The notes: generated from the sequence alone by a model not told the origin. Counted from the stretch's first letter, positions 1,861-20,297 are shown. The stretch is DNA of 32,000 bases from an uncultured Solirubrobacterales bacterium (GCA_963743475.1 CAVUPS010000001.1:857362-889361), one strand, 5' to 3'. A program made the numbers and translations.

Positions 1861-2130
1861 ATGCGCATGTACGTGGCGAGCGATAGCAGCGCCTCGGCGC
1901 AGGCGCGTCGGCAGCTTGCGGCTCTGCGTGAGCGCTTCGGCGGGGGGGATTGGGAGGTCGAGGTCGTCGATGTGTTCGAGCAGCCCGCGCTCGCGGAGGC
2001 CGATCGTGTCCTCGCGACCCCGATTCTGATCCGGCTGCTTCCATCGCGGCGTCTGAGCGTGATCGGGGACTTTGCCGACTTGCAAGCGGTCGCGAACGCG
2101 CTCGATCTTCAACCGGAGGTGGCACGATGA
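1861..2130 (+). CDS. kaiB: KaiB-like circadian clock protein (thioredoxin-like fold), 89 aa
   Basis: The ATG at 1861 lies inside ORF 1699..2130. MRMYVASDSS...VDVFEQPALAEADRVLATPILIRLLPSRRLSVIGDF aligns by eye with S. elongatus KaiB (LKLYVAGNT...[36 protein letters not shown]). The stop TGA 2128-2130 overlaps the kaiC ATG 2127-2129 (ATGA). Confidence 0.85.
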   Translation: MRMYVASDSSASAQARRQLAALRERFGGGDWEVEVVDVFEQPALAEADRVLATPILIRLLPSRRLSVIGDFADLQAVANALDLQPEVAR

Positions 2131-3617: not shown

Positions 3618-3620
3618 GGC

Positions 3621-3878
3621 GTGGGCGCAACACACGCGAGCGAGCCAGCCAGAACCGGCGACGGCTCGGCGATCCCCCGCGACAGTCTGCTCGCGGTGAT
3701 CGAGAGCAACGTCGACGGCCTGACCGCGGACTTCGCCGCGGTGCTCGCGCTCCCCCCGGAAGGCAGCAACCTCCGGCTCGTCGTCTCACAGTGGTCCACG
3801 GCCACGGGGAGCCACGTCACCGGCCCAACGCGGAGCGCTGCCCCGCTCTCGAAGGAGATCGTTCGCAGCCGCGCGTAG
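3621..3878 (+). CDS. Small ORF (85 aa) abutting kaiC; resembles the N-terminal part of a GAF-type sensor domain and may be a truncated remnant
   Basis: The GTG start is 3 nt after the kaiC TAA. Third-position G/C is very high, as expected for a coding frame here. LLAVIESNVDGLTADFAAVLALPPEGSNLRLVVSQW looks like the start of a GAF domain, but the ORF is only about half the length of one. After the TAG a second coding-like frame (VARELLLRGPLRLSVAKIDA) runs for about 20 codons. Confidence 0.4.
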   Translation: MGATHASEPARTGDGSAIPRDSLLAVIESNVDGLTADFAAVLALPPEGSNLRLVVSQWSTATGSHVTGPTRSAAPLSKEIVRSRA

Positions 3879-4321
3879 CGCGCGAACTGCTGCTTCGGGG
3901 TCCGCTGAGGCTGTCGGTCGCGAAGATCGACGCGTAGCCGTCGGGGTGGTGCGCTCCCCCCTTTGAGCCTAAGCCTGATTTCGAGACACACAATTTCGGG
4001 GAGCATGCGCGCCCCCGGCTTCTGCTATTGGGCGAGGAGGCCGTTGGCCGTCGAAGCCATTACCACCGCGCTAAGTCGTGCAAATTGTCGTCCGGCCTGG
4101 GAAGAGTCGCTTGAGCGGTCAAAGTTCGGTGGGCAGCGGCCGCGTGCGGCCCTTTTGGTTGCGGCGACGCAGACAGTTAGGACCATGTGATGGAGCTTTA
4201 TGACGCGAGTCGTTTCGGGCTTGAGGAAGTGTGCGCTGGGTAGCTCCGCGGCTGCGCGACGGACGCGGGACCGGTCGGAGGTCAGTCGGCCCGTTGGACG
4301 ATCGCCTGCGGTGCTTGGCTG

Positions 4322-6442
4322 ATGGCAAGCCAGGCGACATTCGGAGCTCTGAGCGCGGCTCCGCCGCCCGCGATCCTGATCGTCGACGACGACGCGGGCA
4401 AGCGCCTGGCGATCCGGACGATCCTCGCGCCGCTGGGCCATGTGATCGTCGAGGCCGACTCCGGACGCGCCGCGCTGCGCGCGGTCCTGCGCGAGAGGTT
4501 TGCCTTGATCTTGATGGATGTCCGGATGCCGATCCTGGATGGGTATGAGACGGCGAGGCTGATCCGGGGGCGCAGCCAGACGCGGCTGACGCCGATCATT
4601 TTCGTTACGGGCTCGGTCGAGGAGCACCGGGGGGCGACGGAGACCGCTTATGCCAGCGGCGCGGTGGACTTCATCTTCACGCCGGTGGACCCGGATGTGC
4701 TGCGGATCAAGGTCTCGACCTATGTCGCTCTGTTCGTGCAGTCCCAGGAGCTGCAGATCCTCAACGCGGCGTTGCGCGACAGCGAGGTGCGCGCGCACGC
4801 GGTGCTTGAGAACGTGGTCGACGGGATCGTGACGGTCGACGAGAGGGGTCTGATCGAATCGTTTACCCGATCGGCGCGACGGCTGTTTGGCTACAGCGAG
4901 GAGGAGGTGATCGGGCAGCCGCTGGGGCTGATCATCGCGCCGGGCGAACACGACGCCCTGTCTGATCCCGTGCTGACGGGGAAGCGGCCGATCGAGGCGT
5001 TGGGTTGCCGCAAGGACGGCTCGTGGTTCCCGATCGAGGTGCAAACGAGCCAGATGCAGATCGGCGGGCGGACGGTGGAAATCGACAGCATCCGTGACAT
5101 CTCCGAGCGCAAGGCCTACACCGAGGCGCTTGGTCACCAGGCGCTCCACGACGCTCTGACCGGGCTGCCGAACCGGATCCTGTTCGCTGATCGCATGGAC
5201 CAGGCGATCGTGTCTGCCGAGCGTGCGGGCGAGCCGCGCGGTGTGCTGGTGATGGATCTGAACGGCTTCAAGCATGTCAATGACACGCTCGGACGCGATC
5301 GCGGTGACACGCTGCTCAGGGAGATCGGCAAGCGTCTGACGGACGGGTTGCGTGAGACCGACACAGTGGCGCGACTCGGTGGAGACGAGTTCGCGATCCT
5401 GCTCGACGGCGCCAGCGACCTGCCGGCCGCGGCGACGGCGGCCTGGAAGATCCAACAGGTGTGCGAGGCGCCATTCGTGATCGATGACGAGGTCGTGCGC
5501 GTGTCGACGAGCATCGGCATCGCCCTGTTTCCCGAGCACGGCAGAACCACGGCCGATCTGCTGCACCGCGCCGACCTGGCGATGTATGACGCCAAGCGAT
5601 CCGGCACCAGCTACGCCGTCTTTGACGCGGCGCACGCAAAGCAGATGGCACATTCGCTCGCGCTGCTGGCCGATCTGCGCGAGTGCGTCGCCCGCGAGGA
5701 ACTCGTCGTCTACTACCAGCCCCTGATCGACCTCGCGACCCGCAGGACCACCGGCGTCGAGGCGCTCGTCCGCTGGCGCCACCCCAAGCACGGACTCCTG
5801 CAACCCGGAAGCTTTTTGCCCCAGGCCGAGCGCACCCCACTGATCGCACCGCTGACGAGGTGGGTGCTCAACGACGCGCTGCGCCAACAGCAGCGCTGGC
5901 GCGGCGACGGTATCGACGTCACGATGGCCGTCAATATCTCCGCTCGCACGTTGAAACCCAACGGTGACTTGCCCGACACCGTCGCCGAGCTGTCCGACTT
6001 CTGGGGCATCGCACCCGACCGGCTGACCCTCGAGCTCACCGAGAGGACGCTGATCGAACCCGCCGCCCCCAACGTCCTGGCCCGTCTGCACAAGATGGGA
6101 GGCAAGGTGTCAATCGACGACTTCGGCACCGGATACTCCTCACTGGCCTACCTGAAGAACCTGCCGGTCGACCAGCTCAAGATCGATCAATCCTTCGTCC
6201 GAAACCTCGCTAGGGTCCCCGGCGACGCGGTCATCGTGCGCTCGACGATCGACCTCGCGCACAACCTCGGCATGACGGTCGTCGCCGAGGGCGTCGAGGA
6301 CGAGACCACGCTCGACTTCCTCGCCCAGTACGGATGCGACAGCGCCCAAGGCCACCTCTTCAGCCGCGCACTCACCGCCCAGGAGCTCACCCCCTGGCTC
6401 ACCGAGTCAGCCTACGCAGCACACCCCCCACCTCGCAACTAG
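4322..6442 (+). CDS. Response-regulator receiver - PAS - GGDEF - EAL protein (c-di-GMP synthesis/hydrolysis)
   Basis: REC: ILIVDDDAG...ALILMDVRMPILDGYE...IIFVTG. PAS: LENVVDGIVTVDERGLIESFTRSARRLFGYSEEEVIGQPL. GGDEF domain with an intact I-site and active site: RETD-TVARL-GGDEF. EAL domain: YYQPLIDL, GVEALVRW, SIDDFGTGYSSLAYL, VVAEGVE, AQGHLFS. Confidence 0.95.
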   Translation: MASQATFGALSAAPPPAILIVDDDAGKRLAIRTILAPLGHVIVEADSGRAALRAVLRERFALILMDVRMPILDGYETARLIRGRSQTRLTPIIFVTGSVEEHRGATETAYASGAVDFIFTPVDPDVLRIKVSTYVALFVQSQELQILNAALRDSEVRAHAVLENVVDGIVTVDERGLIESFTRSARRLFGYSEEEVIGQPLGLIIAPGEHDALSDPVLTGKRPIEALGCRKDGSWFPIEVQTSQMQIGGRTVEIDSIRDISERKAYTEALGHQALHDALTGLPNRILFADRMDQAIVSAERAGEPRGVLVMDLNGFKHVNDTLGRDRGDTLLREIGKRLTDGLRETDTVARLGGDEFAILLDGASDLPAAATAAWKIQQVCEAPFVIDDEVVRVSTSIGIALFPEHGRTTADLLHRADLAMYDAKRSGTSYAVFDAAHAKQMAHSLALLADLRECVAREELVVYYQPLIDLATRRTTGVEALVRWRHPKHGLLQPGSFLPQAERTPLIAPLTRWVLNDALRQQQRWRGDGIDVTMAVNISARTLKPNGDLPDTVAELSDFWGIAPDRLTLELTERTLIEPAAPNVLARLHKMGGKVSIDDFGTGYSSLAYLKNLPVDQLKIDQSFVRNLARVPGDAVIVRSTIDLAHNLGMTVVAEGVEDETTLDFLAQYGCDSAQGHLFSRALTAQELTPWLTESAYAAHPPPRN

Positions 6443-6601: not shown

Positions 6602-7900
6602 TCATACGGTCGCGAGCGTCCGAGTCACAGCGAGCGCCTGATCGAGGTCCGCGACGATGTCGTCGATGTGCTCGATGCCGACCGACAACCGCACCGTCTC
6701 CTCGGTGACACCAGCCGCCGCCAACTCATCCGCGTTGAGCTGCGAGTGGGTGGTCGAGGCGTTGTGGATCGCCAACGACTTCGCGTCGCCGATGTTGGCG
6801 AGATGGCTGAACAGCTCGAGGTGCTCGATGAACGCGCGCCCCGCGGCAGCACCACCGTTGACGCCGAAGGTCACCAGCGCTCCGTACCCGCCCCGCAGAA
6901 CTCGCTGCGCCACCTCGTGGTAGGGGCTCGACTCGAGCCCGGGGTAGTAGACCCACTCGACGTCCGGGTGACTCTCGAGGTGACGGGCGACGGCCAGCCC
7001 GTTCTGGTTGTGACGCTCGAGCCGCAGCGGCAGCGTCTCGACGCCCTGCAGAAACAGGAAGGCATTGAACGGCGACAGCGCCGCGCCGGTGTTGCGCAGC
7101 AGGACCGTACGCGCGCGCCCAATGAAGGCCGCCGGTCCGAGTGCGTCGGACCACACCACCCCGTGATAGGACGGATCGGGTGCGGTAAATGGGTAATAGC
7201 GATCGCCGTGGGCGGGCCAGTCGAACTTGCCGCTATCGACCAGCGCACCGCCGATCGAGGTCCCGTGCCCACCGATGAACTTGGTCAACGAGTGCACGGC
7301 GATGTCGGCCCCCTGCTCGAACACGCGCGCGCCGATCGGCGTCGGCACCGTATTGTCGAGGATCAGCGGCAGCCCCTGTGCGTGCGCCGCCGCCGCCCAT
7401 GCCTCGACATCGAGCACGTTCAGCCGCGGGTTACCGACCGTCTCCGCGAACACCAGCCGCGTACGATCGTCGGCGAGCCGCGCGACCGCCCCCGGATCGT
7501 CCGCGTCCGCCCACCTGACCTCGACCCCGTACTGCGGCAGCGTATGCGCGAACAGGTTGTACGTCCCGCCGTAAAGCTGCGACACCGAGATGATGTTCTC
7601 GCCCGCCCTGGTCACGTTCAACACCGAGTAGGTGACAGCCGCCTGACCTGAGGCGGTGACCAGCGCACCGATTCCGCCCTCCAGCCCCGCCAGACGCTCC
7701 TCGAGCACCGCCCACGTCGGATTCATGATCCGCGAGTAGATGTTCCCGGGAACCTTGAGCGCGAACAGGTCGGCCGCGTGCTGAGTGTCGTTGAACACAT
7801 ACGACGACGTCTGATAAATCGGCACGGCCCGCGCATTCGTGGCGCTGTCGGCCGTCTGCCCGCCGTGCAGGGCGATCGTCTCGGGTCTCAGCGATGACAT
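6602..7900 (-). CDS. metY: O-acetylhomoserine sulfhydrylase (PLP-dependent, Cys/Met metabolism family)
   Basis: N-terminus ETIALHGGQ...AVPIYQTSSYVF. PLP-lysine motif HSLTKFIGGHGTSIGG. A GAAGGAG RBS lies upstream of the ATG on the minus strand. Confidence 0.9.
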   Translation of the reverse strand: MSSLRPETIALHGGQTADSATNARAVPIYQTSSYVFNDTQHAADLFALKVPGNIYSRIMNPTWAVLEERLAGLEGGIGALVTASGQAAVTYSVLNVTRAGENIISVSQLYGGTYNLFAHTLPQYGVEVRWADADDPGAVARLADDRTRLVFAETVGNPRLNVLDVEAWAAAAHAQGLPLILDNTVPTPIGARVFEQGADIAVHSLTKFIGGHGTSIGGALVDSGKFDWPAHGDRYYPFTAPDPSYHGVVWSDALGPAAFIGRARTVLLRNTGAALSPFNAFLFLQGVETLPLRLERHNQNGLAVARHLESHPDVEWVYYPGLESSPYHEVAQRVLRGGYGALVTFGVNGGAAAGRAFIEHLELFSHLANIGDAKSLAIHNASTTHSQLNADELAAAGVTEETVRLSVGIEHIDDIVADLDQALAVTRTLATV

Positions 7901-8243
7901 CGTGGTGGCGGCTCCTTCTCAGCAATGAACACGCGCATTGTAGATCAAAATACAAGTTAGCTCATAGGTTTAGTGGGGATCTCGCGTCTTGCGGGCAGGA
8001 CCTCCTGTTCGAGTAGTCCGAACAGGGCGGCGGCGTCGCGCGCGTCCTGGCCGCAGGACCAGGACCGAGCCGGAGCAGCACGCCGCGCTTCTATGACCGC
8101 GATCAGGACGGGCGGCCGCTTGCCTGGCTTGAGCGCATCCGCGCCTCGATCCGCACCCTCGCGCCCGCGTTTTGCGCCAGCGAATGCTCGCAGACTACGT
8201 CGAGCAGATCTACGCGCCGACCCTGGCCGGCCGAGACAGGCTG

Positions 8244-9422
8244 TCAGTCGCGCTCGAGCAGCATTGCAATTCCCTGGCCGCCGCCGATGCAGAGGCTCAC
8301 GAGCCCCAGCTTCAGGTCGTTGCGTTCCATCTCCCCCAGGATCTTGGTCGTGATGATCGCTCCGGTCGCGGCGATCGGGTGGCCGAGCGCGATTGCTCCG
8401 CCGTTTGGGTTGACCTTCGCAAGATCGAGCTCGAGGTCCTGGCAGACCGCCAGGGACTGGGCTGCGAACGCCTCGTTGAGCTCGATTACATCGACGTCGT
8501 CGAGCCTCTTGCCGGCCCGCTCGAGCGCCTTGCGCACGGCGGGCACGGGCCCGATCCCCATCGTCTTGGGCTCCACCCCGCAGACCGCGTACGAGATGAT
8601 CCGAGCTCGGACCGGTACGCCCAGCTCCTGCGCACGTTGTGCCGACATGACGAGGACCGCTGCGGCGGCGTCATTGACGCCGGAGGCGTTACCGGCCGTC
8701 ACCGTGCCGTCCTTCTTGAAGGCCGGCTTGAGCTTCGCGAAGTCCGCCAGCGTGGCATCGCGTCGGAGATGTTCATCGACCCTGAACTCGGTGGTCCCCT
8801 TACGCGTCTTGAGCTCGATCGGCACGACCTCCTCGTCGAACCGGCCCGCCTCGATTGCTGCCTGAGCGCGGCGATGGGACTCCAGCGCGAACTCGTCCTG
8901 GGCGTTGCGAGAGATCCCATGAGACTCGCTCACGTTCTCGGCAGTAACCCCCATATGAATCTCATTGAATGGATCGGTTAGGCAGCCGACAACCGAGTCG
9001 ACCATCGAAGCGTCACCCATGCGCGCGCCCCATCGGGCGTTCTGCATCCAGTAGACGCCCCTGCTCATCGACTCTGCACCACCGGCCAGTACGACATCCG
9101 CATCGCCGGTCTGAATTGTCTGTGCGGCCGAGACGATCGCCTGCACGCCGCTACCACACAGGCGGTTGACGGTGAAGGCCGGCGCCTCCTTTGGGATGCC
9201 GGCCTTGATCCCGACTACCCGTGCCATGTACATATCTTCGGCGGCGGTGTGGATGACGTTGCCAAACACGACCTGCTCGACTTGCTCGGGCTCCAGCCCG
9301 GCGCGGTCGATTGCCGCTCGGGCAGCCGTGGCTCCTAGCTGTGCTGGAGGGACGTCGCGCAGACTCTTCCCAAACGACCCGATGGCAGTTCGGGCCGCCG
9401 ATGCGATCACAACATCGATCAT
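8244..9422 (-). CDS. Acetyl-CoA acetyltransferase (thiolase), 392 aa
   Basis: The start is the internal ATG at 9422 (MIDVVIASAARTAIGSFGKSL), preceded by AAAGGA. The upstream 60 codons of ORF 8244..9602 look non-coding. Thiolase motifs present: VNRLCGSG, GNASGVNDAAAA, NPNGGAIALGHPIAATG, LCIGGGQG. Confidence 0.9.
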   Translation of the reverse strand: MIDVVIASAARTAIGSFGKSLRDVPPAQLGATAARAAIDRAGLEPEQVEQVVFGNVIHTAAEDMYMARVVGIKAGIPKEAPAFTVNRLCGSGVQAIVSAAQTIQTGDADVVLAGGAESMSRGVYWMQNARWGARMGDASMVDSVVGCLTDPFNEIHMGVTAENVSESHGISRNAQDEFALESHRRAQAAIEAGRFDEEVVPIELKTRKGTTEFRVDEHLRRDATLADFAKLKPAFKKDGTVTAGNASGVNDAAAAVLVMSAQRAQELGVPVRARIISYAVCGVEPKTMGIGPVPAVRKALERAGKRLDDVDVIELNEAFAAQSLAVCQDLELDLAKVNPNGGAIALGHPIAATGAIITTKILGEMERNDLKLGLVSLCIGGGQGIAMLLERD

Positions 9423-9517
9423 GGTCGTTGTTCCTTTCGCGTTGCGCACCCAACCCAGCGGGCCAGGCGGGACTGCGCGATGAAGGACGCATCCCACGTT
9501 ACGCCGATTGTGCACCT

Positions 9518-9529
9518 GACACAAGTGTC
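9518..9529. promoter_or_regulatory. Operator-like palindrome GACAC-AA-GTGTC upstream of the thiolase gene
   Basis: Perfect 5+5 inverted repeat about 100 nt upstream of the thiolase start. A related GACTTGTC follows about 15 nt away. No regulator gene is visible nearby, so any function is inferred. Confidence 0.2.
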
Positions 9530-9811
9530 GGGCAATAGGGACTTGTCGAGCACAGTCACGTCGAGCGCGGCCGCTTGTGCTCGCTTGCGCTCGCTCGGGC
9601 ATCTCGACGTCCAGACGTTCCCGGCGCGGCGTAGGCCGTGGGCGCGGCCGTTGAGTGGATGAGGCTACACGCGGTGGCGTAGGCTCCGATGTCCATGCTG
9701 TTCAATCGGCGCGCGGGCGCCGTCACGCAAGACGGCGTTCCCCCCTGCGGGGCTCGGGCTCTCCCCCACCCGCTACCGCGCGATGGTTTGTCAGCGGAGG
9801 TGCGCGACGAG

Positions 9812-10510
9812 CTACTTCTTGGCCTGCTCGAAGTACGGGTTGGTGCCGGAGGCGTGGTCGGTGACGTCGACGACGCGGTTGATTTCGGGCACCGCCTGGG
9901 TGATGGCGACTTCGATGCCCTGGCTGAGGGTGACTGTGGCCATGCCGCAGCCCTGGCACCCTCCCCCTAGGCGTAGGTAGACGGTGGCGCCTTCGACGGC
10001 AGCGAGTTCGGCGTGTCCGCCGTGGCTGGCGATGGCGGGGTTGACGTCGCGGTCGAGCACCGCCATCACGCGACGCGCGAGATCGGTGTCCAGCCCGCCT
10101 GAGGGCGAGGGCCGAGGTGGACCCGGCGGGGGGCCGGGGCGGGCAGTTCCCGGGCTCATTGGCAGGGTCGGAAGTGGGACGGGCGGTCGAGAGGGTTTGT
10201 TCGGGTTGATGACCACGAAGCCGCCGCCCAGCCGGTTCTCGCTCCAGTCCACCGTGGCGCCGAGCAGCTTTGCGACGCTTTCGTGGGGCACCACGATGGC
10301 TAGATCACCCTGGTGCTGCACGGTGTCGCTGACGCGGACCTGAGTCTGCGGCTCCAGCGAAAGCGCGCAGACGTATTCGCCGTCGGCCGCGCCGGTGACC
10401 CGCACCGACAGGACGCAATCGCTCGGGTCGGGAGCGGCGGCGCGGAAGCCGCGCACGCGCTCGAGGGCTGACGCCGTGATGGCGAGGAGCGGTAGAGCTG
10501 CGTCGGCCAC
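9812..10510 (-). CDS. NfuA-like Fe-S cluster biogenesis protein (HesB/IscA-like N-domain, Pro-rich linker, Nfu C-domain)
   Basis: GTG start at 10510 (VADAALPLLAITASALERV). There is no Met before residue ~150, and any start further upstream would overlap the divergent gene. N-domain: ITASALERVRGF...VLSVRVTGAADGEYVCALSLE. Linker: NKPSRPPVPLPTLPMSPGTARPGPPPGPPRPSPSGG. Nfu domain: VNPAIASHGGHAELAAVEG...GGGCQGCGMATVTL. Confidence 0.8.
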   Translation of the reverse strand: MADAALPLLAITASALERVRGFRAAAPDPSDCVLSVRVTGAADGEYVCALSLEPQTQVRVSDTVQHQGDLAIVVPHESVAKLLGATVDWSENRLGGGFVVINPNKPSRPPVPLPTLPMSPGTARPGPPPGPPRPSPSGGLDTDLARRVMAVLDRDVNPAIASHGGHAELAAVEGATVYLRLGGGCQGCGMATVTLSQGIEVAITQAVPEINRVVDVTDHASGTNPYFEQAKK

Positions 10511-10527
10511 CGATCTACGATAGCGCC
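10511..10527. promoter_or_regulatory. 17-nt divergent intergenic region with two overlapping TANNNT -10-like hexamers, each 6 nt from a GTG start (candidate back-to-back leaderless promoters)
   Basis: Plus strand: TACGAT (10516-10521), then agcgcc, then GTG 10528. Minus strand: TATCGT (10522-10517), then agatcg, then GTG 10510. There is no room for a Shine-Dalgarno sequence on either side. Confidence 0.4.
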
Positions 10528-11775
10528 GTGGACCGCCTGCTCCTGATCCTGCCGTCGGCCACCTACCGGGCGCCGGACTTCCTGGCGGCAGCACGGGAGC
10601 TCGGCGTCGCGGTCACGGTCGCGTCCGAGCGCCGGGCGGCGATGTCGGCGGCGATGGGCGAACGTGCGCTCACCCTGCGGCTGTCGGACCCGGCAGTGGC
10701 GGCCGAGCAGATCGCCCAGCGTGCCCGGGAGACCCCGTTCGCTGCGGTCGTGGGCGTCGATGACCAGGGCGTGATGGCCGCCGCGCTGGGTGCCGAGCGC
10801 CTCGGCCTGCCCCACAACCCGCCGGCCGCCGTCGCCCGCACGCGCGACAAGGCGGCGATGCGCCGGGCGCTCGCGGAGGCCGGCGTCCCGCAACCGCGCT
10901 TCGCGCTGCTGCCCTATGGAGCCGACGTCGCGACGGTGGCGCGCGAGGTGGGCCTTCCCTGCGTCGTCAAGCCGCTGGGGCTGTCAGGCAGCCGGGGGGT
11001 GATCCGGGCGGATGACGGCGAGCAGGCGCGCTCGGCCGCCGAGCGCGTCCGGGGCATTCTCGCCGCCGCTCAGGAGCCGCCCGGCGCTCCGCTGCTGCTG
11101 GAGAGCTACCTGCCCGGCGCGGAGATGGCGATCGAGGGGCTGCTGCGCGGGGGCTGTCTGGAGGTGCTGGCAGTGTTCGACAAGCCCGACCCGCTCGAGG
11201 GGCCGTACTTCGAGGAGACGCTGTACGTGACGCCGTCGCGGCTGGCGACCGGCGTCCTGGCCGAGGTCGAGGCGGTCACTGCGCGGGCGGCGCGCGCGCT
11301 AGGGCTGCGGGAGGGACCGGTCCACGCCGAGCTGCGCGTGGACGGCGAGCGGGTGAGCGTCCTGGAGCTAGCGGCCCGGTCGATCGGCGGGCTGTGCTCT
11401 CGCGCGCTGCGCTTCGGTGCCGGCGTCAGCCTGGAGCAGGTGATCCTCCGCCACGCCTTGGGCCTCGGGCTCGAGGACCTGGCGCGGGAGTCGACGGCGT
11501 CTGGCGTGATGATGATCCCGATCCCCGAGGCTGGCGTGCTGCGCGCGGTCGAGGGGCAGGGGGACGCGCGGGCGGTGGAGGGCATCGGCGGGCTGGAGAT
11601 CACGATTGCCCGCGGCCGCGCCGTCGTGCCGCTGCCCGACGGCGACCGCTACCTAGGCTTCATATTCGCGCGCGCGGCGAGCGCCGACGCGGTCGAGCGC
11701 TCCCTGCGCTCCGCGCACGGCCGCCTACGGATCCGGATCGAGCCGCACGCGCCCGAGCCGGTCGCCGCGCGCTAG
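10528..11775 (+). CDS. ATP-grasp domain protein (carboxylate-amine/thiol ligase superfamily), substrate unknown
   Basis: MDRLLLILPSATYRAPDFLAAARELG pre-ATP-grasp domain. DKAAMRRALAEAGVPQP, LPCVVKPLGLSGSRGVIRADD, LLLESYLPGAEMAIEGLL and PVHAELRV...VLELAARSIGG follow the ATP-grasp layout. Confidence 0.8.
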   Translation: MDRLLLILPSATYRAPDFLAAARELGVAVTVASERRAAMSAAMGERALTLRLSDPAVAAEQIAQRARETPFAAVVGVDDQGVMAAALGAERLGLPHNPPAAVARTRDKAAMRRALAEAGVPQPRFALLPYGADVATVAREVGLPCVVKPLGLSGSRGVIRADDGEQARSAAERVRGILAAAQEPPGAPLLLESYLPGAEMAIEGLLRGGCLEVLAVFDKPDPLEGPYFEETLYVTPSRLATGVLAEVEAVTARAARALGLREGPVHAELRVDGERVSVLELAARSIGGLCSRALRFGAGVSLEQVILRHALGLGLEDLARESTASGVMMIPIPEAGVLRAVEGQGDARAVEGIGGLEITIARGRAVVPLPDGDRYLGFIFARAASADAVERSLRSAHGRLRIRIEPHAPEPVAAR

Positions 11776-11787
11776 CGTGGGTCACCC

Positions 11788-13194
11788 GTGCGCGTCCTGT
11801 TGATCTCCACCTACGAGCTGGGCCACCAGCCGTTGCACGTCGCGTCGCCGGCGGCCGCGCTGCGCCGCGCCGGGCACGATGTCCGCTGCCTGGATCTCAG
11901 CGTGCAGCCGTGGGACCACGGTGCGCTGGAATGGGCGCAGGCGGTCGGCTTCTCGGTGCCGATGCACACCGCCATGCGGCTGGCGCTCAGCGCCGGCCGC
12001 CGAGTGCGCCGCGAGCACCCCGGGCTGCCGATCTGCTTCTACGGGCTCTACGCCACGGTCAGCCGCGAGCTGGTAGAGCGTGAGCTCGCCGCGCGCGCGA
12101 TCGCTGGCGAGTACGAGCCGGCGCTCACGGCCTGGGTGGACGAGCTGGCGGCCCCGTGCGCGACCGCCCAGGCCGCCGGACGGCCGATCATCCACCTGCA
12201 GCGCGGCACCTTCGACCCGCCGGCGCGCGAGCTGCTGCCCGGACTCGAGCGCTACGCCCGCCTGGCGGTGGGCGGGGAGGAGCGGCTGGTCGGGTACGTC
12301 GAGGCCAGCCATGGGTGCGTGCATCGCTGCCGGCATTGCCCTGTCCCCGCCGTCTACGACGGGCGCATCCGCATCGTGCAGGCCGAGACCGTCCTGCGCG
12401 ACATCGAGCACCTGGCGGACATGGGCGCGCGGCACATCACGTTCGGCGATCCCGACTTCCTCAACGGCTGGCGCCACTCTCTGGCGATCGTACGTGCGCT
12501 CCACGAGCGCCGACCGGAGCTGACCTTCGACTGCACGACGAAGGTCGAGCACGTGCTCGAGCACGCCGACGTGTGGGATCAGATGGCCGCCTCGGGCTGC
12601 CTATTCGTTGTCAGCGCGCTGGAGAGCGTCAACGACGAGATCCTCGCCCGCCTCGACAAGGGCCACACCACCGCGCAAGCGGTGCAAGCCCTCGACCTGC
12701 TGCGCGAGCACGGAATCGAGACCAGGCCCTCGTTTATGCCCTTCACGCCGTGGACGACCCCGGCTGACGTGCTAGACATCGTCGACTTCGTCGCCGCGCA
12801 CGATCTGGTCGCCAACGTCGACCCGGTGCAGTACACGATCCGGCTGCTCGTGCCCGAGGACTCGCTACTGCTGGCGAGCGAGGACCTGCGCGAGCACCTC
12901 GGCCCCTACCAAGCCCAACGACTCAGCTACCCGTGGCGCTCAGCGGACCCAACAGCCGACCGGCTGCAAGGCCGCCTCAGCGCGCTGGTCCAACAGAGCG
13001 CCGCCGCGGAGGAAGCAATTGGCCTGACGTTCGCGCGCATCCGCACGGCGGTGCGCGAGGCCACCGGCGAAGCGGACGGCCCCGAGCCCGAGGCCATCCC
13101 CATGGGATCGACCGAGGGGAGGCCACGGCTCACCGAGCCGTGGTTCTGTTGAGCGGAGCCCACCGAGGACCAGTTCGGTCCTCTCACAGCGTGA
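11788..13194 (+). CDS. B12-binding-domain-type radical SAM protein with a C-terminal C-U-A-E-P tail; predicted selenoprotein (in-frame TGA 13150-13152 read as Sec), 468 aa if recoded
   Basis: GTG start 12 nt after the ATP-grasp stop. N-terminus MRVLLISTYELGHQPLHVASPAAALRRAGHDV. Radical SAM cluster motif EASHGCVHRCRHCPV (CxxxCxxC). The ORF track ends at TGA 13150-13152, but the codons read TGG TTC TGT TGA GCG GAG CCC = W F C U A E P. Thirteen sense codons (AEPTEDQFGPLTA) follow before TGA 13192-13194. I recall a RefSeq/NCBIfam family named CUAEP/CCAEP-tail radical SAM (seleno)protein; that is from memory and unverified. Confidence 0.8.
13165..13183 (+). other. Candidate bacterial SECIS hairpin (could also be a shared terminator hairpin of the convergent gene pair)
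   Basis: GAGGACC (13165-13171), loop AGTTC, GGTCCTC (13177-13183): a perfect 7-bp stem. It begins 12 nt after the UGA, and the apical loop containing GU sits about 20 nt after the UGA. The hairpin ends exactly at the stop codon of the convergent DsrE-like gene (13184-13186). Confidence 0.5.
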
Positions 13195-13549
13195 TCACAT
13201 GATCCGGCGGGTCTCCCGCCAGCGCCGCGTAGAGGTCGGGGAAGCAACCGACCCGCACGCCGACGACCGTTCCCGCCGGCAGCGCCGCGCCGATCTCCCC
13301 CTCGGCCAAGCCGCGCTCCAACGCGCACTGGTCACAGAGCATCAGCAGCATTCCGCGCTGGGCGGCCACTCGCCCGAGGCGCTCGCCCACCGGATCGCCC
13401 GCTCGGAGCAGGTAGGTGTTGTCGTCAAAGAAAAACATTCCGACAACCTCAACGCCGTGCGTGCCCTGCTCCAGCTGCGGAAGGATCATCCTCCCGAGCT
13501 TGTAGCTGGCCGTGTGGCCAGAGGTGGAGAACACGTAGGCAACCTTCAT
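13184..13549 (-). CDS. DsrE/TusD-like sulfur(selenium?)-relay family protein, ~121 aa (alternative GTG start at 13582)
   Basis: MKVAYVFSTSGHTASYKLGRMILPQLEQGTHGVEVVGMFFFDDNTYLL is a typical DsrE-fold N-terminus. The conserved Cys segment LLMLCDQCALERGL is present. The 3' end overlaps the extended rSAM ORF by 11 nt, in convergent orientation. Confidence 0.7.
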   Translation of the reverse strand: MKVAYVFSTSGHTASYKLGRMILPQLEQGTHGVEVVGMFFFDDNTYLLRAGDPVGERLGRVAAQRGMLLMLCDQCALERGLAEGEIGAALPAGTVVGVRVGCFPDLYAALAGDPPDHVITL

Positions 13550-13930
13550 CCCGGCGGGAGAGTAGCCGGAAGCCGCGCGCACCCGTTGCCGGTGGTGGTC
13601 CCGGAGGTCACATGACCATCACTCCCCGGTCAGAAGAGCCGCACCCGCGTCGTCAACGGCCCTGCCGCAGTCGCGTGGTCCCGGCAGCCACGGCCGCCGT
13701 ATCGGGACGATCGGTTTCGACGGGACGCGATCGCGCGGACCCGGGCGCCGCGACGATTCCTTTTCTTCTCGCGCCGGCGGGCAGCGCGCTACCGCAATGG
13801 CGACGTTTCAGCCGTCCAACTCTACGCGCGGGACCCCGACGAGGTTCGTTGTCACGCTTCCGAGGGAGTCAAGCGGCGTGCTGCGCGGGAGCCACTTGCG
13901 CCGTTCGGTTGCCTTGGCCGCAACCCTTAG

Positions 13931-14561: not shown

Positions 14562-14976
14562 CGCTGCTACTTCCTCTGTCTTTAGCCGATTGACTAAGGA
14601 TCGGGGCGCAGTTTCATACGTGTGGCCAGCGTGCGGTCGAGTTCGTGGCACGGTCCGATGGCGCGCCTCGCGACGAATGCGAGCGCCAACGTCGACGTTC
14701 CCGCACGTCTGCGCCGACCCACCCGCGGCCGTAGGCGACCGCGGCGTCGGACGCCTTCTAATCTAAGGTAAGCGCGGAAAGCGCGACCCTGGTACGTGCG
14801 CTTCAAGTCGCCGGGCCGCGGCGCCGGATGGTGTCTGCGGAGGGGCTGCGCGCTGCGAAGAACGTGCCTGGGGGAAGAGGATCGTGGGCCGAACGTTGGC
14901 CACTTGTCCATGTCGCAACCGCGCCCTATGGATCAGGCTTCCGCCTGGTGGCACAGTTACGAGGAAAGGAGCGGCG

Positions 14977-16023
14977 ATGGATACCGCGGTCGTGACTCAC
15001 CCGACGCCGCGGCAGTATGGGATGGCGATGCCTCCGGAGTGGGCTCCGCACGAGCTCACCCTGATGGCGTGGCCAACGCGGCTTGAACTTTGGGGCGATG
15101 CCCTCGATATGGCGAAGCGCGAGTACGCCGCCGCCGCGTGGGCGATCGCCGGATTTGAGCCGGTGTTGATGGTGGCGGCGCCTGGCGCCGGCCCTGAGGT
15201 GCGAGAGGCGTGCGGCGAAGGGGTCGAGGTGCTCGAGCTAGCGATCGACGACTCGTGGATGCGCGATAGCGGTCCGGTGATCGTGACCGGAGCGGATGGC
15301 TGTCGTGCCGGGGTCGACTTCAGGTTCAACGGCTGGGGGGAGAAGTTCGTTCCCTACGATCGTGACGACGCGATGAACTGCGCGCTGCTGGCGCACTTGC
15401 GGATCGACCGGGTCGAAGCCGACTTTGTGCTCGAAGGCGGGTCGATCGCGGTCGACGGCGAAGGGACGTTGATCGCCACCGAGCAGTGCCTGCTTCATCC
15501 GTCGCGCAATCCTGCTCTGACCCGCGCTGAGCTCGAGAGCCGGTTGGGCGACTACCTGGGCATCGACAAGGTCGTGTGGATCCGGAGCGGGCTAGTCGAG
15601 GACTACGACACAGACGGGCATGTCGACAATGTCGCGGTGTTTGTCCGTCCGGGCGTGGTGCTCGCCCAGACCGTCGACGACGCGCGCGATCCTAACCACG
15701 AGCCGCTGGCCGAGAACGTCGAGCGCCTACGCGCTGCGACCGACGCGCGCGGGCGCCGGCTCGAGGTGATCGAGCTTCCGGTGTTGCCGCGCACCCGGGT
15801 GCGCGGGCAGCCCGGCGTGGTGCCGTACACGAACCTCTATATCGTCAACGGGGCGGTGGTCGTGCCGGTGTGCGGCGATGATCTGAGTCGCGACGAGGAG
15901 GTGCTGCGGATGCTCGCGTCAGTGTTCGCGCCCCGTGAGATTGTGCCCGTGCCTGGCCGGGGGCTGGCTGAGGGCGGCGGGGGCGTGCACTGCATCACCC
16001 AGCAGGTGCCGGTAAGCTCATAG
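14977..16023 (+). CDS. aguA: Agmatine deiminase
   Basis: ATG at 14977 is preceded by GAGGAAAGGAG. Motifs: MPPEWAPHE, DDSWMRDSGP, FRFNGWGEKF, EGGSI..DGEGT, DTDGHVDN, and the catalytic Cys in GGGVHCITQQ. Confidence 0.9.
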   Translation: MDTAVVTHPTPRQYGMAMPPEWAPHELTLMAWPTRLELWGDALDMAKREYAAAAWAIAGFEPVLMVAAPGAGPEVREACGEGVEVLELAIDDSWMRDSGPVIVTGADGCRAGVDFRFNGWGEKFVPYDRDDAMNCALLAHLRIDRVEADFVLEGGSIAVDGEGTLIATEQCLLHPSRNPALTRAELESRLGDYLGIDKVVWIRSGLVEDYDTDGHVDNVAVFVRPGVVLAQTVDDARDPNHEPLAENVERLRAATDARGRRLEVIELPVLPRTRVRGQPGVVPYTNLYIVNGAVVVPVCGDDLSRDEEVLRMLASVFAPREIVPVPGRGLAEGGGGVHCITQQVPVSS

Positions 16024-16033
16024 ACTCGCGCGC

Positions 16034-16981
16034 GTGGAGCGGCCTGCGCTCATCACCGCACTGCATCCGCTGGAGTCCCCGGCGCGTGTGAATCTCCCCG
16101 AGCGCGAACCATTTCGGATCGGACTCGTCCAACAGCGGTGGCATCCCGATCCCGAGGAACACGAGTCGGCGCTCGCCGATGGCATTCGCGTAGCGGCGGA
16201 GCAGGGCGCCGGCTTGGTCTGTCTTCAGGAGCTGACGCTGTCGCCGTACTTCGCGGTCAATCCCGACGCTGGCGATTGGCCGGCAGCCCATGCCGAGTAC
16301 ATTCCAACCGGCCCGACCACCGCGTTCGCTGCCCGGCTCGCCGCCGAGACCGGAGCGCACGTGCACGCATCGCTCTTCGAGCGAGCCGGAGAGGCAGAAC
16401 TGGGATACAACACCGCGATCTGCGTGTCGCCGTCCGGCGAGGTCGTGGCCCGGACGCGCAAGCAGCACATCCCCGTGACCGCCGGCTACTACGAGGATCG
16501 CTACTTCCGTCCCGGCGACTCCGGCTACCCGGTAGTGGAAATCGCCGGCGCCGGGTTTGGGTTCCCGACGTGCTGGGACCAATGGTTTCCCGAGCTGGCC
16601 CGCGCCTATTCGCTCGCTGGCGCGGAAGTGATCGTCTACCCGACCGCGATCGGCTCCGAGCCCGACCACCCCGAGTTCGACACCGAGCCGCTGTGGGAGC
16701 GTGTAATCAGCGCGAACGGGATAACGAACGGCACGTTCATGGTCGCCGTCAACCGCATTGGGTACGAGCCCCCCCTCACGTTCTACGGGTCGTCGTTCAT
16801 CTCAGACCCGTACGGCAGGATGCTCGTCCAGGCCCCGCGCGACCGTCCGGCGATACTGATCGCCGACCTCGACCTCGACCAGCGGCGCGACTGGCTTGAC
16901 CTGTTCCCATTCCTCGACACCCGCCAGCCGAGCCAGTACGCACCGCTCGTGGCCGAGCGCTCCCCCACCCGGCGGGATTGA
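16034..16981 (+). CDS. aguB: N-carbamoylputrescine amidase (CN-hydrolase/nitrilase superfamily)
   Basis: Starts 10 nt after aguA. Glu in VCLQELT, Lys in RKQHIP, Cys in PTCWDQWFPE. The pairing with aguA fits the agmatine-to-putrescine route. Confidence 0.9.
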   Translation: MERPALITALHPLESPARVNLPEREPFRIGLVQQRWHPDPEEHESALADGIRVAAEQGAGLVCLQELTLSPYFAVNPDAGDWPAAHAEYIPTGPTTAFAARLAAETGAHVHASLFERAGEAELGYNTAICVSPSGEVVARTRKQHIPVTAGYYEDRYFRPGDSGYPVVEIAGAGFGFPTCWDQWFPELARAYSLAGAEVIVYPTAIGSEPDHPEFDTEPLWERVISANGITNGTFMVAVNRIGYEPPLTFYGSSFISDPYGRMLVQAPRDRPAILIADLDLDQRRDWLDLFPFLDTRQPSQYAPLVAERSPTRRD

Positions 16982-17428
16982 CGCGGCCCGGCCAGGCGCG
17001 GCCGCCGAGGACAACCGAACCGAGGCGGACCTCGCGCTGGCGCGGCGACAGGGCGCCCCCTAACCGCGGAGACACGCGTCCTGTTCCATCGTGCCTCGAC
17101 TGGCGACCGGCGAATGCAACACGAACGCGACCCGGTACCCGGGAGTGCTGATCGCAAGCGGGGGCTGGGTCGTCGGCCTCACGCTCACTGTCCTCGCCCT
17201 CGCGCTGATTACCTTCCGCATGAGCCGACAGCGTCGGCACCCCAAACGACTAAATTTCGCGGCTCGATCATCCCGCCTGCGTGTACCCCTCCCGACGCTT
17301 CGCCGCGACGCCGCCGCCCTCGCGGACGGCCGACGCACGGCTCGGGTCCTCGTGGCTGGCTAGACCTTCGACGTAGAGCGTTCTCATCTCTTTCTCCAGG
17401 CCGGTTTATCCCGGCGCTTGCCGGCTCC

Positions 17429-17938
17429 TTATCCCCGCCGGGTTATCCCGGTGACCTCCCATGCCCGACCAAGGCCGCTGCCATAAAAAGCCACAATGAC
17501 GAGGACCAAGGCACGTTGCAGCGCGGCACTCTGGGTGTTCGCTAGGAGCGCCACGGCGAGGCCGAGCTGCACTGAGTAGCCCCCAACCGAAAGCGCCGCG
17601 AAGGCGAGATTCAGCCTTCTGGTTCGAGAGCTGCGGGAAAAATTTCCAGCCCGCTTTGCCCTTGGTATCAGCCGTCTGGTGGCCAGCAGGCCGACGGTTG
17701 CCATGGCGATGCTTGATAGCCCGAAGACGACTGAGCCCCCGGTCAAGGCCACGATCGAGACGAAGAAGATGTCTACCAGGACAACAAACGCGCTCCCGGC
17801 CAACACAGTTCGCAACTCCCGAGTTGTGGGATTCGCGTCGTCCGCGTTGACGACCGATACGGCGACGACGAGCAACCCCAAGATGGCGGCGGACGCGCCC
17901 GCGCTTGCGACGAAGAAGCTCTGATAGTGGCCCACCAC
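17429..17938 (-). CDS. Hypothetical integral membrane protein (about 4 predicted TM helices)
   Basis: GTG start. Hydrophobic stretches: AGASAAILGLLVVAVSVV, AGSAFVVLVDIFFVSIVALTGG, VVFGLSSIAMATVGLLA, LAFAALSVGGYSVQLGLAVALLA. No family recognised. Confidence 0.55.
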   Translation of the reverse strand: MVGHYQSFFVASAGASAAILGLLVVAVSVVNADDANPTTRELRTVLAGSAFVVLVDIFFVSIVALTGGSVVFGLSSIAMATVGLLATRRLIPRAKRAGNFSRSSRTRRLNLAFAALSVGGYSVQLGLAVALLANTQSAALQRALVLVIVAFYGSGLGRAWEVTGITRRG

Positions 17939-18103
17939 AACGCCACCCTATCGGCGGCTATCGTGGCGAGGAGTGCCCGACCGCGTTCTCCACGACAAGG
18001 ATCCCCCGGTGCCCAGCGGAGCGCTACTACGCGACCGGACCCGAGATCCCTGTTGCCCCGATTCTGGGCTTATGTCGAAGAACAGGCCCGCTACCGTTCG
18101 GTT

Positions 18104-18783
18104 ATGGCCCGGTCTGAACATTGCCGCGCGGACCCGCCGGGCCCGGAGCACCTGGCGGCAACCGCATTCATCGACGCTGGGCACCCGACCGTCCGCGCGT
18201 TCGCGGAGCGCGCGGTCGCCGACGCGGTGACGGGCCGGGAGCGGATCTCGCGGCTGTTCACCGCGGTGCGCGATGAGATCCGCTACGACCCCTACCAGCT
18301 CTCCCATAACCCGCGCGATTACATTGCCAGCAATGTAATCAGCCGCGGCGTGGCCTTCTGCATCCCCAAGGCCGTCGTCCTCACCGCTGCCGCCCGCTCG
18401 CTCGGGATCCCGGCGCGTCTGGGCTTCTCGGACGTAAAGAACCACCTGCAGTCCCCCAAACTCGCCGAGCGAATGGGCACCGACGTCTTCGTATTCCACG
18501 GCTACAGCGAGCTGTATGTCCACGGCACCTGGAGAAAAGCGACCCCGGCGTTCAACGCCGAACTGTGCGAGCGCTTCAGCGTCCCGCCGCTGACCTTCGA
18601 CGGATCTGCCGATGCGCTCCTTCATCCTTCGCCGCCGACGGCAGCGCCTACATGCAGTACATCCGCGACCGCGGCGTCTACGCCGACCTCCCCCTGGGAC
18701 CGATTCTCGAGGTCTTCGCGACCGCGTACCCCGGGTTCGGCACCGGCGAGGCGACAGGCGACGATCCCGCATTCTCCGCCTGA
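18104..18783 (+). pseudogene. Transglutaminase-like cysteine protease family gene with a -1 frameshift near 18620-18630 (or an assembly indel)
   Basis: The frame of ORF 17927..18880 carries the core (GVAFCIPKAVVLTAAARSLGIPARL...HGYSELYVHGTWRKATPAF...TFDGSADALLH). It then degenerates into SPPTAAPTCSTSATAAST. The protein-like continuation FAADGSAYMQYIRDRGVYADLPLGPILEVFATAYPGF is in the frame of ORF 18565..18783. Confidence 0.7.
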
Positions 18784-19301
18784 CAAGCTGACGTCCGACC
18801 TCGCTCGTTCGAGCACAGACCGGTCGCTGCAACCACGTGCGCTCCACTCAACCGACCGCTCACCAACGCCTGACCGTTGACGGGCGACGTCTCGCGCGGT
18901 CTACCGCTGATCGGGCGAGCTGCGCGACCGTGCGCGGGTGAATCGAGGGAACAGCGTCCTCTGCCACGGCGATCCGCAGCGTCCGCGCGGTAGTTCCAGA
19001 GCTGCTGCCCAGCATGCGAAGGGGCACGCTGTCGCCGATCCCGGCAGACTGTTGTCCCGCGTTCGCGCCGCCGAGAGCGCCAGGGGCCGGCGGGGTGGGC
19101 GATTCGCCAGGGCCGGTGGACCGCGGCCGTCACCGGCGCGCTGGCACCCGCTCGCTGACATCCTGGGCGGCCGCGATCGACAGCGCGCCTCACGAGCCGG
19201 TGCCACCGACTCGACACCACCAGTCGGCACCGGTCCACCGCACCCGTTCCCGACCTAACACCCCGGCACCCGATACCCCCAGCCGCTATTCTCCCATAAT
19301 T

Positions 19302-19742
19302 GTGAGCATCGAGGAGCTACAGATCAGCATTGAGCGCCACCTTGAGGAACTTTCAGAACAGGTCGAGCGGTTGCGCGCCGCGCTTGAAGCGTTGGACCCG
19401 GGCGACCCGGCGCACGTGAGGTCGCCAACAGGCAGGACGCCACGAGCGACGGGCCCGCGCGAACGGCCGGCAGCCAGGCTCGGCGCAACGCCGCACGCGG
19501 TGCGGGCCAACGGGCAACCCCTCAGCGCGGTTGCGATCGCCGGGAGCGGCGCTGGGCCGGCGAGCTCACCCCCGCTCTCACCCGTCGCGTCCGAGGCGAG
19601 GACTCTGAGCGCCGAGGGTGAGGACTGTCTGTCGCGTGAGCGACAGCCCCGGCATCCGCGCGAACGGGGCGCCGACCTAACTCCCGCAGGTGTTCTTCGC
19701 GGTTCGTCTGGAGCGCGGCGGCCCCTGGGATTGGTCGCGTGA
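19302..19742 (+). CDS. Hypothetical ORF; only the N-terminal coiled-coil-like ~35 aa look protein-like
   Basis: GTG at 19302 gives VSIEELQISIERHLEELSEQVERLRAALEALDPGD. The remainder is low-complexity R/P/A/S and overlaps the YciI-like fragment in another frame. Confidence 0.3.
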   Translation: MSIEELQISIERHLEELSEQVERLRAALEALDPGDPAHVRSPTGRTPRATGPRERPAARLGATPHAVRANGQPLSAVAIAGSGAGPASSPPLSPVASEARTLSAEGEDCLSRERQPRHPRERGADLTPAGVLRGSSGARRPLGLVA

Positions 19743-19776
19743 CCCGCGTGAGCAGGACGATTGGGACGAGCACGCG
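19690..19776 (+). pseudogene. N-terminal ~29-aa fragment of a small YciI-like protein family (GPxWDxSRxxREQxxWDEHA)
   Basis: GTG at 19690 gives VFFAVRLERGGPWDWSRDPREQDDWDEHA. The expected continuation (AAFMD...) is missing; the frame instead reads RLPRRARNAPNWSRSTR and then a stop. The family assignment is from memory. Confidence 0.35.
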
Positions 19777-19781
19777 CGGCT

Positions 19782-19937
19782 CCCGCGGCGGGCGAGGAAC
19801 GCGCCGAACTGGAGCAGGTCGACGCGGTAGGCCTCACGCGTGTTGCGCGTCAACCCGCGTTCCTGCTCGAGATGGGTCAGGAAGTCGAGCATGAGCTGCT
19901 CGAAGGTCTGAGCAGCTTCTCGCGAAACGGTAGTCAT
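19782..19937 (-). pseudogene. N-terminal ~52-aa fragment of a XerC/XerD-type tyrosine recombinase (core-binding SAM-like domain only)
   Basis: ATG at 19937 gives MTTVSREAAQTFEQLMLDFLTHLEQERGLTRNTREAYRVDLLQFGAFLARRG, which is typical of a phage-integrase N-terminal domain. After RRG the frame becomes SRACSSQSSCSRGS. No catalytic domain appears in any frame. Confidence 0.6.
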
Positions 19938-20297
19938 AACGCTCTGTTCGCCGGCACCGTCGCGATCCCTGCCGATTCTCACGCCGGGTCGCGTTCCACG
20001 GCGTCGGGGTCTGGTGCTGCTGCGCCGCCCGCGGGCCTCAGTGGCCGGCGGCGGTGCACACCAAACCGTGCGCGTGGCAGTGGCCGCGCGGTGTGTGGCC
20101 TTGAGGCGGCGTGCGAGGGCTCAGAGCGAGCCCGAGCCAGCGCGCTCGCTCGCGGTCAAGCATCGCGACATCGCCCCCGAACTGCAACCTTGGGATCGAT
20201 CCGGTCGGGCTCGGCGCGCGTTCCAGCCTGAAACGTCGCGAGCGTGCCGCGCGGCACGTGGCACCATGTGCCACCGCATGACCAACCAGCGAGTCAG

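Follow-up and report, generated by a model that had tools for sequence, protein, structure and literature searches.

The subject of this analysis is a compact, mobile gene module of soil bacteria, seen here in a 32,000-nt stretch of DNA from an uncultured Solirubrobacterales bacterium (GCA_963743475.1, CAVUPS010000001.1:857362-889361), which in its whole length is called the window here. The module encodes an NfuA-like iron-sulfur protein, an ATP-grasp ligase of the L-amino-acid-ligase (Lal) type and a radical S-adenosylmethionine (SAM) selenoprotein with a Cys-selenocysteine (Cys-Sec) pair close to its C-terminus. The reading that we favour, and hold tentatively, draws on the sequence and on analogy with the arsenic enzyme ArsL. 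It proposes that the radical SAM enzyme may form a carbon-heteroatom bond while its Cys-Sec tail holds the substrate, and that the product may then be built into a dipeptide.

Relatives of the radical SAM protein were collected in a scan of one genome per species. The scan returned 184 genomes with a relative, among them Solirubrobacterales metagenome-assembled genomes (MAGs) at 94% identity, and 80 loci were kept. Nucleotide homology to these loci (blastn) begins and ends at 9775 and 13595 of the window, the limits of the conserved mobile module. The NfuA-like gene lies on the minus strand at 9812-10510; its reading frame is open to 10594, and a GTG start at 10510 fits the alignments of orthologues. 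The ligase gene (10528-11775, plus strand; Pfam domains and a match to 3VOT) diverges from it, also from a GTG start, across a 17-nt spacer (10511-10527) that has the same length in related loci. The radical SAM gene (11788-13194, plus strand) starts 12 nt past the ligase stop. Its UGA codon for Sec (13150-13152, plus strand) stands directly 3' of a Cys codon, and the frame beyond reads AEPTEDQFGPLTA and ends at the TGA at 13192-13194. The fourth gene, an optional accessory encoding a CxxC protein of the SaoD/DsrE family, lies on the minus strand at 13184-13549 (frame open to 13582; conserved ATG start at 13549). It converges on the radical SAM gene and overlaps its recoded 3' end by 11 nt (13184-13194). 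An earlier, sequence-only reading of this DNA had described four tightly packed open reading frames (ORFs) with these spacings, and all of them are present. Its family calls (NfuA-like, ATP-grasp, B12-type radical SAM and DsrE-like) were upheld by profile matches in Pfam and NCBIfam.

The radical SAM protein has 468 residues including Sec455, a core CxxxCxxC motif at C177, C181 and C184 (invariant in 73/73 sequences) and the tail ...RPRLTEPWFC-U-AEPTEDQFGPLTA. With Sec entered as Cys, it matched the NCBIfam model NF040546 (CUAEP/CCAEP-tail radical SAM (seleno)protein) at 565.3 bits against a cutoff of 500 (E 9.6e-170), covering model positions 1-467 of 468. The tail motif C-[U/C]-A-E-P is present in the window protein and in the related loci, with TGA in 56 and a Cys codon in 21. 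NCBI gives a 94%-identical protein the CUAEP/CCAEP-tail name, and about 8,000 database proteins match the query; the entries are mostly 454 rather than 468 residues long, with gene callers stopping at the UGA. The family has been mentioned in one sentence, as uncharacterised (Haft, 2022 preprint), and no other literature on CUAEP/CCAEP was found. The cassette had been described as lacking an assigned pathway. That statement stands, but the radical SAM protein itself is not an unknown, since a curated family matches it above cutoff. A structure prediction from a shallow alignment (24 sequences, 85-95% identical) gave a mean pLDDT of 45.6, with the tail below 50.

The nearest model for the chemistry is ArsL, the RCCLKC-tail radical SAM enzyme that makes the C-As bond in the antibiotic arsinothricin. 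The ArsL model (NF040542) was the second-best NCBIfam match, at 281 bits over residues 3-393 (E 2e-83), and PhpK was third at 64 bits. ArsL has been shown to cleave SAM to methylthioadenosine and a 3-amino-3-carboxypropyl (ACP) species and to join the ACP species to As(III) bound on the cysteines of its C-terminal RCCLKC motif. Removal of this motif or replacement of its cysteines by alanine abolished the product and left SAM cleavage intact. To our knowledge, ArsL is so far the sole canonical-fold radical SAM enzyme that uses the ACP half of SAM and the sole known route to a C-As amino acid. The two proteins share a B12-binding-like N-terminal domain, the CxxxCxxC core and a C-terminal extension that closes with vicinal Cys residues (Cys-Sec in the cassette protein), and both families occur on mobile DNA. 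With an RCCLKC-tail protein of Bacillus cereus, the window protein shares 34% identity across the full core, N-terminal domain included. In a 74-sequence alignment, Cys454-Sec455 falls on the CC of RCCLKC, and the third Cys is lacking.

The cassette protein is nevertheless not ArsL, because the tests of score, tail and context all fail; its sequence makes it a full member of the catalogued NF040546 family. The ArsL cutoff of 450 was missed. The tail is C-U-A-E-P followed by nine residues rather than RCCLKC, and it offers two chalcogen ligands (one of them Sec) in place of three Cys. Two further residues, C83 and C271, are invariant in the CUAEP family and absent from ArsL, and the genetic partners are an NfuA-like protein and a Lal rather than ArsM and ArsQ. 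Elsewhere, the CU dipeptide occurs where Hg or organometallic species are handled, namely in proteins of the selenocysteine-assisted organometallic (SAO) system, in HgcA and in MerT (Haft, 2022 preprint). Transfer of an ACP group in the manner of ArsL is suggested by these contexts together with the rank of ArsL as nearest model, the identity across the core and the alignment of the tail with RCCLKC. In the literature, no paper was found that links ArsL to selenocysteine or arsinothricin to ATP-grasp ligases.

The domain content of the protein also allows a more conventional chemistry. The N-terminal B12-binding domain PF02310 was found above its cutoff (38.5 bits against 32.1), next to the Radical_SAM domain PF04055 (72.9 bits), whose members almost all make 5'-deoxyadenosine. 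The weaker NCBIfam matches (PhpK, HpnR, Gln C-methyltransferase and AprD4) are class B methyltransferases or related enzymes, and among solved structures the closest relatives by sequence are radical SAM proteins of the B12 type or related to it. The enzyme could accordingly act through a 5'-deoxyadenosyl radical or through cobalamin-dependent class B chemistry, methylating or otherwise modifying a dipeptide or amide built by the ligase. The Cys-Sec tail would then be a mobile redox arm that gives electrons or a hydrogen atom and does not bind the substrate. A precedent for such an arm is the GCUG tail of mammalian thioredoxin reductase, in which a vicinal Cys-Sec pair likewise lies near a flexible C-terminus, although the fold is unrelated and Sec is penultimate there and 14 residues from the end in the cassette protein. 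We consider this explanation unlikely: the score of the ArsL model is about four times that of any class B model, and the tail aligns with the substrate-binding Cys motif of ArsL. Furthermore, published reconstitutions of ArsL gave AST-OH when SAM, As(III) and a reductant were supplied, and cobalamin is not mentioned in the text consulted.

At the codon aligned with the Sec codon of the window, TGA is found in 56/77 related loci and TGC or TGT in 21/77. The 13 codons past this position are kept in frame in all related loci, in Sec and Cys forms alike (AEPTE.QFGPL..). This alternation and the conserved in-frame tail place the recoding beyond chance. Sec and Cys forms are intermixed along the identity range of the related loci, which indicates repeated exchange between the two. 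A SECIS-like (selenocysteine insertion sequence) hairpin follows at 13165-13183 on the plus strand (GAGGACC, loop AGUUC, GGUCCUC). Judged by the spacing and loop criteria for bacterial SECIS elements, it has a 7-bp stem, with the loop beginning 22 nt past the U of UGA; the second loop nucleotide is G. Among 34 distinct TGA sequences, 97.9% of the pair cells are standard pairs, and one pair varies as A-U (11), G-U (12) and G-C (10). In the 21 Cys-codon sequences the pairing has decayed to 60.5% of cells. The fold of the single sequence was not significant in this GC-rich context (z = -0.56), so the case for the hairpin is made by the comparative data. The terminal Cys-Sec tail that had been read from the window alone proved genuine. 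The codon alternation, the in-frame tail and a hairpin kept in TGA forms and decayed in Cys forms identify the radical SAM gene as a true selenoprotein gene. A role of the hairpin as terminator of the DsrE-like gene was ruled out: it is retained in loci without that gene, and it has no T-run.

The same arrangement was found in a cultured and more distant relative. The homologue in Thermomicrobium roseum (43% identity) also carries TGA, followed by AEPLEDPSGP, and has a different hairpin (GGACCC/GUC/GGGUCC) at the equivalent place after the TGA. On the T. roseum megaplasmid NC_011961.1 (L081, 8935-10437), the frame runs for 23 further codons (AEPLEDPSGPVASQVRMVDQPLR) across this SECIS-like hairpin; the protein is therefore truncated in the gene table distributed with PLSDB. 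The T. roseum family member adjoins genes for a pyridoxal-phosphate-dependent aminotransferase, a major facilitator superfamily transporter and a GNAT protein; such surroundings are typical of amino-acid metabolites. In a tblastn search with E. coli SelD against plasmids, this megaplasmid was not among the best 40 matches listed. No tRNA was found in the window, and an Rfam scan of the window gave a single match, to a group II intron elsewhere, and none over the cassette.

A second, amino-acid-directed step is suggested by the ligase. The ATP-grasp protein matched ATP-grasp_4 (95.7 bits), LAL_C2 (51.4 bits) and ATPgrasp_N (44.5 bits), all above their cutoffs, and no NCBIfam equivalog was reached. 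Its top solved relative is 3VOT, the L-amino acid ligase BL00235 (E 4e-33, residues 20-401), followed by BacD. What had been called an ATP-grasp ligase can be placed more exactly: on its LAL_C2 domain and 3VOT match it is of the L-amino-acid-ligase type. It has the three-domain ATP-grasp architecture, including LAL_C2, common to BL00235, BacD-YwfE, RizA and TabS, and differs from these ligases in its tight linkage to a radical SAM gene across the 12-nt gap. BL00235 forms Met-Gly and Met-Met, so a gamma-substituted 2-aminobutyrate is among its accepted substrates. Several characterised Lals join an amino acid to an antimetabolite warhead, as in bacilysin, rhizocticin and tabtoxin.

A comparable pairing was seen next to ArsL-family genes themselves. 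On ars-island plasmids of Bacillaceae, 2.3-3.3 kb separate an ArsL-family gene from a mini-operon for three proteins: a small member of the carboxymuconolactone decarboxylase (CMD) family, ArsR, and a Lal-type ATP-grasp protein with LAL_C2 above cutoff. Together, gene and mini-operon take up 139-1967 and 5001-6275 in B. cereus pBc10987 (L082) and 3178-4999 and 7001-8275 in Priestia megaterium pN447-3.1 (L084). This hints that arsinothricin-type amino acids may become dipeptides in that setting as well.

Taken in sequence, the favoured mechanism would begin with reductive cleavage of SAM at the C-gamma-S bond in the fashion of ArsL. The ACP group would be transferred to a soft inorganic substrate, a metalloid or a chalcogen, presented on the flexible Cys454-Sec455 pair, possibly with help from the invariant Cys83 and Cys271 in holding it. 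The product would be a gamma-heteroatom-substituted 2-aminobutyrate, which the Lal would join to a second amino acid to give a dipeptide. The NfuA-like carrier would keep the [4Fe-4S] cluster of the radical SAM enzyme loaded, and the CxxC SaoD/DsrE-like protein, where present, would be a dispensable chaperone for the inorganic substrate. The sequence-only reading had inferred sulfur or selenium insertion. In the mechanism proposed here, either element is retained as a possible substrate, but the nearest enzyme, ArsL, points to ACP transfer onto a heteroatom held by the tail.

Conservation of the genes supports treating the three as one unit. Among the 80 kept loci, tblastn and ORF clustering recovered the radical SAM gene in 77, the ligase gene in 72 and the NfuA-like gene in 69, in a constant arrangement. 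Down to 59% radical SAM identity, the trio stays together in Solirubrobacterales, Gaiellales, Acidimicrobiales, Euzebyales, Egibacteraceae and Chloroflexota. Persistence of the adjacency outside close relatives had been set beforehand as a test of the cassette, and it extends to several orders of Actinomycetota and to Chloroflexota. The window is 88-93% identical to related loci inside 9775-13595, and no homology was found outside these limits (blastn against the 80 loci). Two MAGs hold two copies each (L003/L004 and L011/L030), 99.8% and 99.2% identical and with unrelated flanks; mis-binning of two strains could contribute to this. The coding core (9812-13194) has 72.6% GC against 67.1% in the remaining window, and the module exceeds both flanks in GC in 51/54 loci, by about 5 points over Solirubrobacterales flanks. 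In Acidimicrobiales and Chloroflexota, module GC equals host GC. With its bounded homology, duplicate copies with unrelated flanks and raised GC, the trio therefore behaves as a sharply bounded, horizontally acquired mobile unit. Neither terminal inverted or direct repeats at the module ends nor a recombinase inside it were found. Mobility and raised GC are in keeping with an accessory role, for instance in detoxification or secondary metabolism.

Pairs of an ATP-grasp enzyme and a radical SAM enzyme occur in some gene clusters for ribosomally synthesised and post-translationally modified peptides (RiPPs). The cassette enzymes also show weak NCBIfam matches to RiPP radical SAM enzymes (ApyD and rSAM_ocin_1) and to RimK-type ligases. 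The two enzymes could then mature a ribosomal peptide, or the C-terminus of a protein, encoded elsewhere. We regard this as very improbable. The sequence-only reading had seen no precursor-peptide ORF, and the comparison agrees: the gaps measure 12 and 17 nt, and neither a small ORF nor a further ORF family recurs within the module or next to it. The ligase has the architecture of a free-amino-acid ligase, with LAL_C2 and a match to BL00235 over its full length. Conserved genes for a protease, a transporter or a RiPP recognition element were not found, and the module moves without other genes.

The NfuA-like protein bears on a further explanation. It combines a Cys-less A-type (IscA-like) N-terminal domain (TIGR00049 at 38-133), a long Pro-rich linker and an Nfu domain with CxxC in the motif GGCQGCG (Pfam NifU, 75 bits at 176-242). 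The CxxC is kept in 63/70 sequences, and in the N-terminal domain no Cys is conserved. NCBIfam models for NfuA matched the C-terminal half only, at 100.1 bits, short of the equivalog cutoff of 269. The cassette protein thus shares the two-domain layout of E. coli NfuA, a Cys-less A-type domain and an Nfu domain with CxxC, but by its score it is not an orthologue; it differs in its long Pro-rich linker and in being tied by linkage to one radical SAM client. NfuA is known to rebuild the consumed cluster of LipA.

In an explanation close to that of the sequence-only reading, C83, C271, C454 and U455 could hold an auxiliary Fe-S(e) cluster or a persulfide or perselenide whose chalcogen is sacrificed to a carbon radical. 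An example would be conversion of a 3-amino-3-carboxypropyl radical to homocysteine or selenohomocysteine, with the NfuA-like protein rebuilding the cluster and the DsrE-like protein supplying S or Se. The dedicated NfuA-like carrier (69 loci), the invariance of C83 and C271 here and their absence in ArsL, the sulfur-transfer function of the DsrE fold in other systems (Haft, 2022 preprint) and the use of selenium demonstrated by the Sec codon itself are all consistent with such insertion. So is the position of the module in one Chloroflexota clade (L068, L071, L073, L078 and L080; about 7400-13300), directly upstream of lipB, lipA and genes for the E1 and E2 subunits of pyruvate dehydrogenase. 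In the same clade the module is downstream of a cluster encoding a DUF1295 protein, a cyclopropane-fatty-acid-synthase-like protein, an amine oxidase and a DUF1365 protein. The adjacency to lipB-lipA could be due to chance or to shared use of the NfuA-like carrier, and it is limited to this clade. Sacrificial insertion of S or Se appears quite unlikely to us, since selD and cysteine desulfurase genes are unlinked to the module among the loci and the C-terminal Cys motif of ArsL binds no cluster. The remaining points against it concern the DsrE-like protein.

This protein matched Pfam DsrE (PF02635) at 24.4 bits against a cutoff of 22.7 and NF040913 (SaoD/DsrE family) at 191 bits against 152, whereas the model for SaoD proper (NF040732) gave 120.4 bits, below its cutoff of 169. 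C83, C86 and C113 are invariant in 39 orthologues and form a CxxC plus a third Cys. The protein and SaoD of the SAO system share the DsrE fold, the invariant CxxC with third Cys and the company of a CU-motif protein. In contrast to SaoD, the cassette protein belongs to the sister model NF040913, is dispensable and occurs without other sao-type genes, none of which were found among the module neighbours. Non-SAO members of this SaoD-related branch adjoin metal-import genes, and the branch has been tied to metal and organometallic contexts (Haft, 2022 preprint). The protein belongs in this CxxC, metal-linked branch and not with the classical persulfide relays of the DsrE/TusD type, as had been proposed for it. 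Nor is the gene a fixed part of the cassette: 38 loci have it intact, 11 hold a fragment and 27 lack it, and it is confined to Solirubrobacterales-type loci. Its presence is independent of the Sec or Cys form of the radical SAM gene. A role as obligatory Se donor was rejected for this reason and because the gene is often decayed; loss or decay in half of the loci likewise argues against S/Se insertion supplied by this protein.

The ArsL-like reading, in turn, faces several observations that weigh against it. An identity of 34% is no guarantee that the unusual SAM cleavage mode of ArsL is retained, and As(III) is not an obvious substrate because the tail has two chalcogen ligands where ArsL has three Cys. 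The obligatory NfuA-like partner and the additional pair of invariant Cys could be signs of an auxiliary or sacrificial cluster instead, to which the lipB-lipA neighbourhood in Chloroflexota may also point, and the ligase could act ahead of the radical SAM enzyme. Homologues of ArsR, ArsB, CobW and an ArsN-like GNAT protein were absent from the window and the 80 loci (ArsM itself was not queried), as was a SelD homologue, which leaves selD unlinked to the module. Across the same 80 loci no further gene family is conserved in or beside the module, including any methyltransferase, exporter or resistance acetyltransferase; a gene for a MIP channel was a single case (L030). The ATP-grasp protein of the Bacillaceae plasmids is only 22% identical to the cassette ligase.

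The expression signals of the module and its surroundings in the window can be described briefly. The GC content of the window is high (65-75%). The spacer at 10511-10527 showed no sigma-70-like promoter, nor was a promoter consensus found nearby, and the 17-nt gap without one leaves two arrangements: either the NfuA-like and ligase mRNAs are both leaderless, or each promoter lies inside the opposite gene. Two terminator-like matches were at chance level. The group II intron RNA (Rfam RF02005, 76 bits) is at 17189-17384 on the minus strand, 3.6 kb downstream of the cassette. The 60 nt beside it (window 17360-17419) are 87% identical to positions 7261-7320 of locus L055, right after a CUAEP radical SAM gene cut at residue 392; in that MAG, the gene may have been broken up by a related intron. 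Several long ORFs (169-299 aa) without a Pfam match adjoin the intron RNA at 17429-19837 (minus strand). An ORF at 20244-21293 (plus strand) joins an ERCC4 nuclease domain to a C-terminal Lsr2 DNA-binding domain, an unusual fusion. A KaiC-like double ATPase (1950-3617), a response-regulator/PAS/GGDEF/EAL protein (4322-6442) and an agmatine deiminase with N-carbamoylputrescine amidase for putrescine synthesis (14884-16981), all on the plus strand, are not conserved beside the module.

The literature yielded no description of the conserved, mobile module of NfuA-like, Lal and radical SAM genes, nor of a connection between it and ArsL chemistry. The module carries a large sister family of ArsL in which a Cys-Sec pair replaces the Cys motif and to which an amino-acid ligase and a private Fe-S carrier are added, and this family points to a second branch of ArsL-type chemistry. 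It is possible, though doubtful, that the enzyme is the first Sec-dependent radical SAM enzyme to form a carbon-heteroatom bond, placing an ACP group on Se, Te, Sb, As or another soft element ahead of dipeptide formation. If so, a new organo-element amino-acid metabolite, whether an antimetabolite, a detoxification product or a cofactor, would be found widely among the Actinomycetota and Chloroflexota of soils, where a mobile cassette would spread it. Which element is used, and which product is made? Both questions are directly testable, as natural Cys variants could be expressed in E. coli and the family has a cultured member in T. roseum DSM 5159. Confirmation would bring to light a new class of organo-element natural products, and selenocysteine would gain a new catalytic use.

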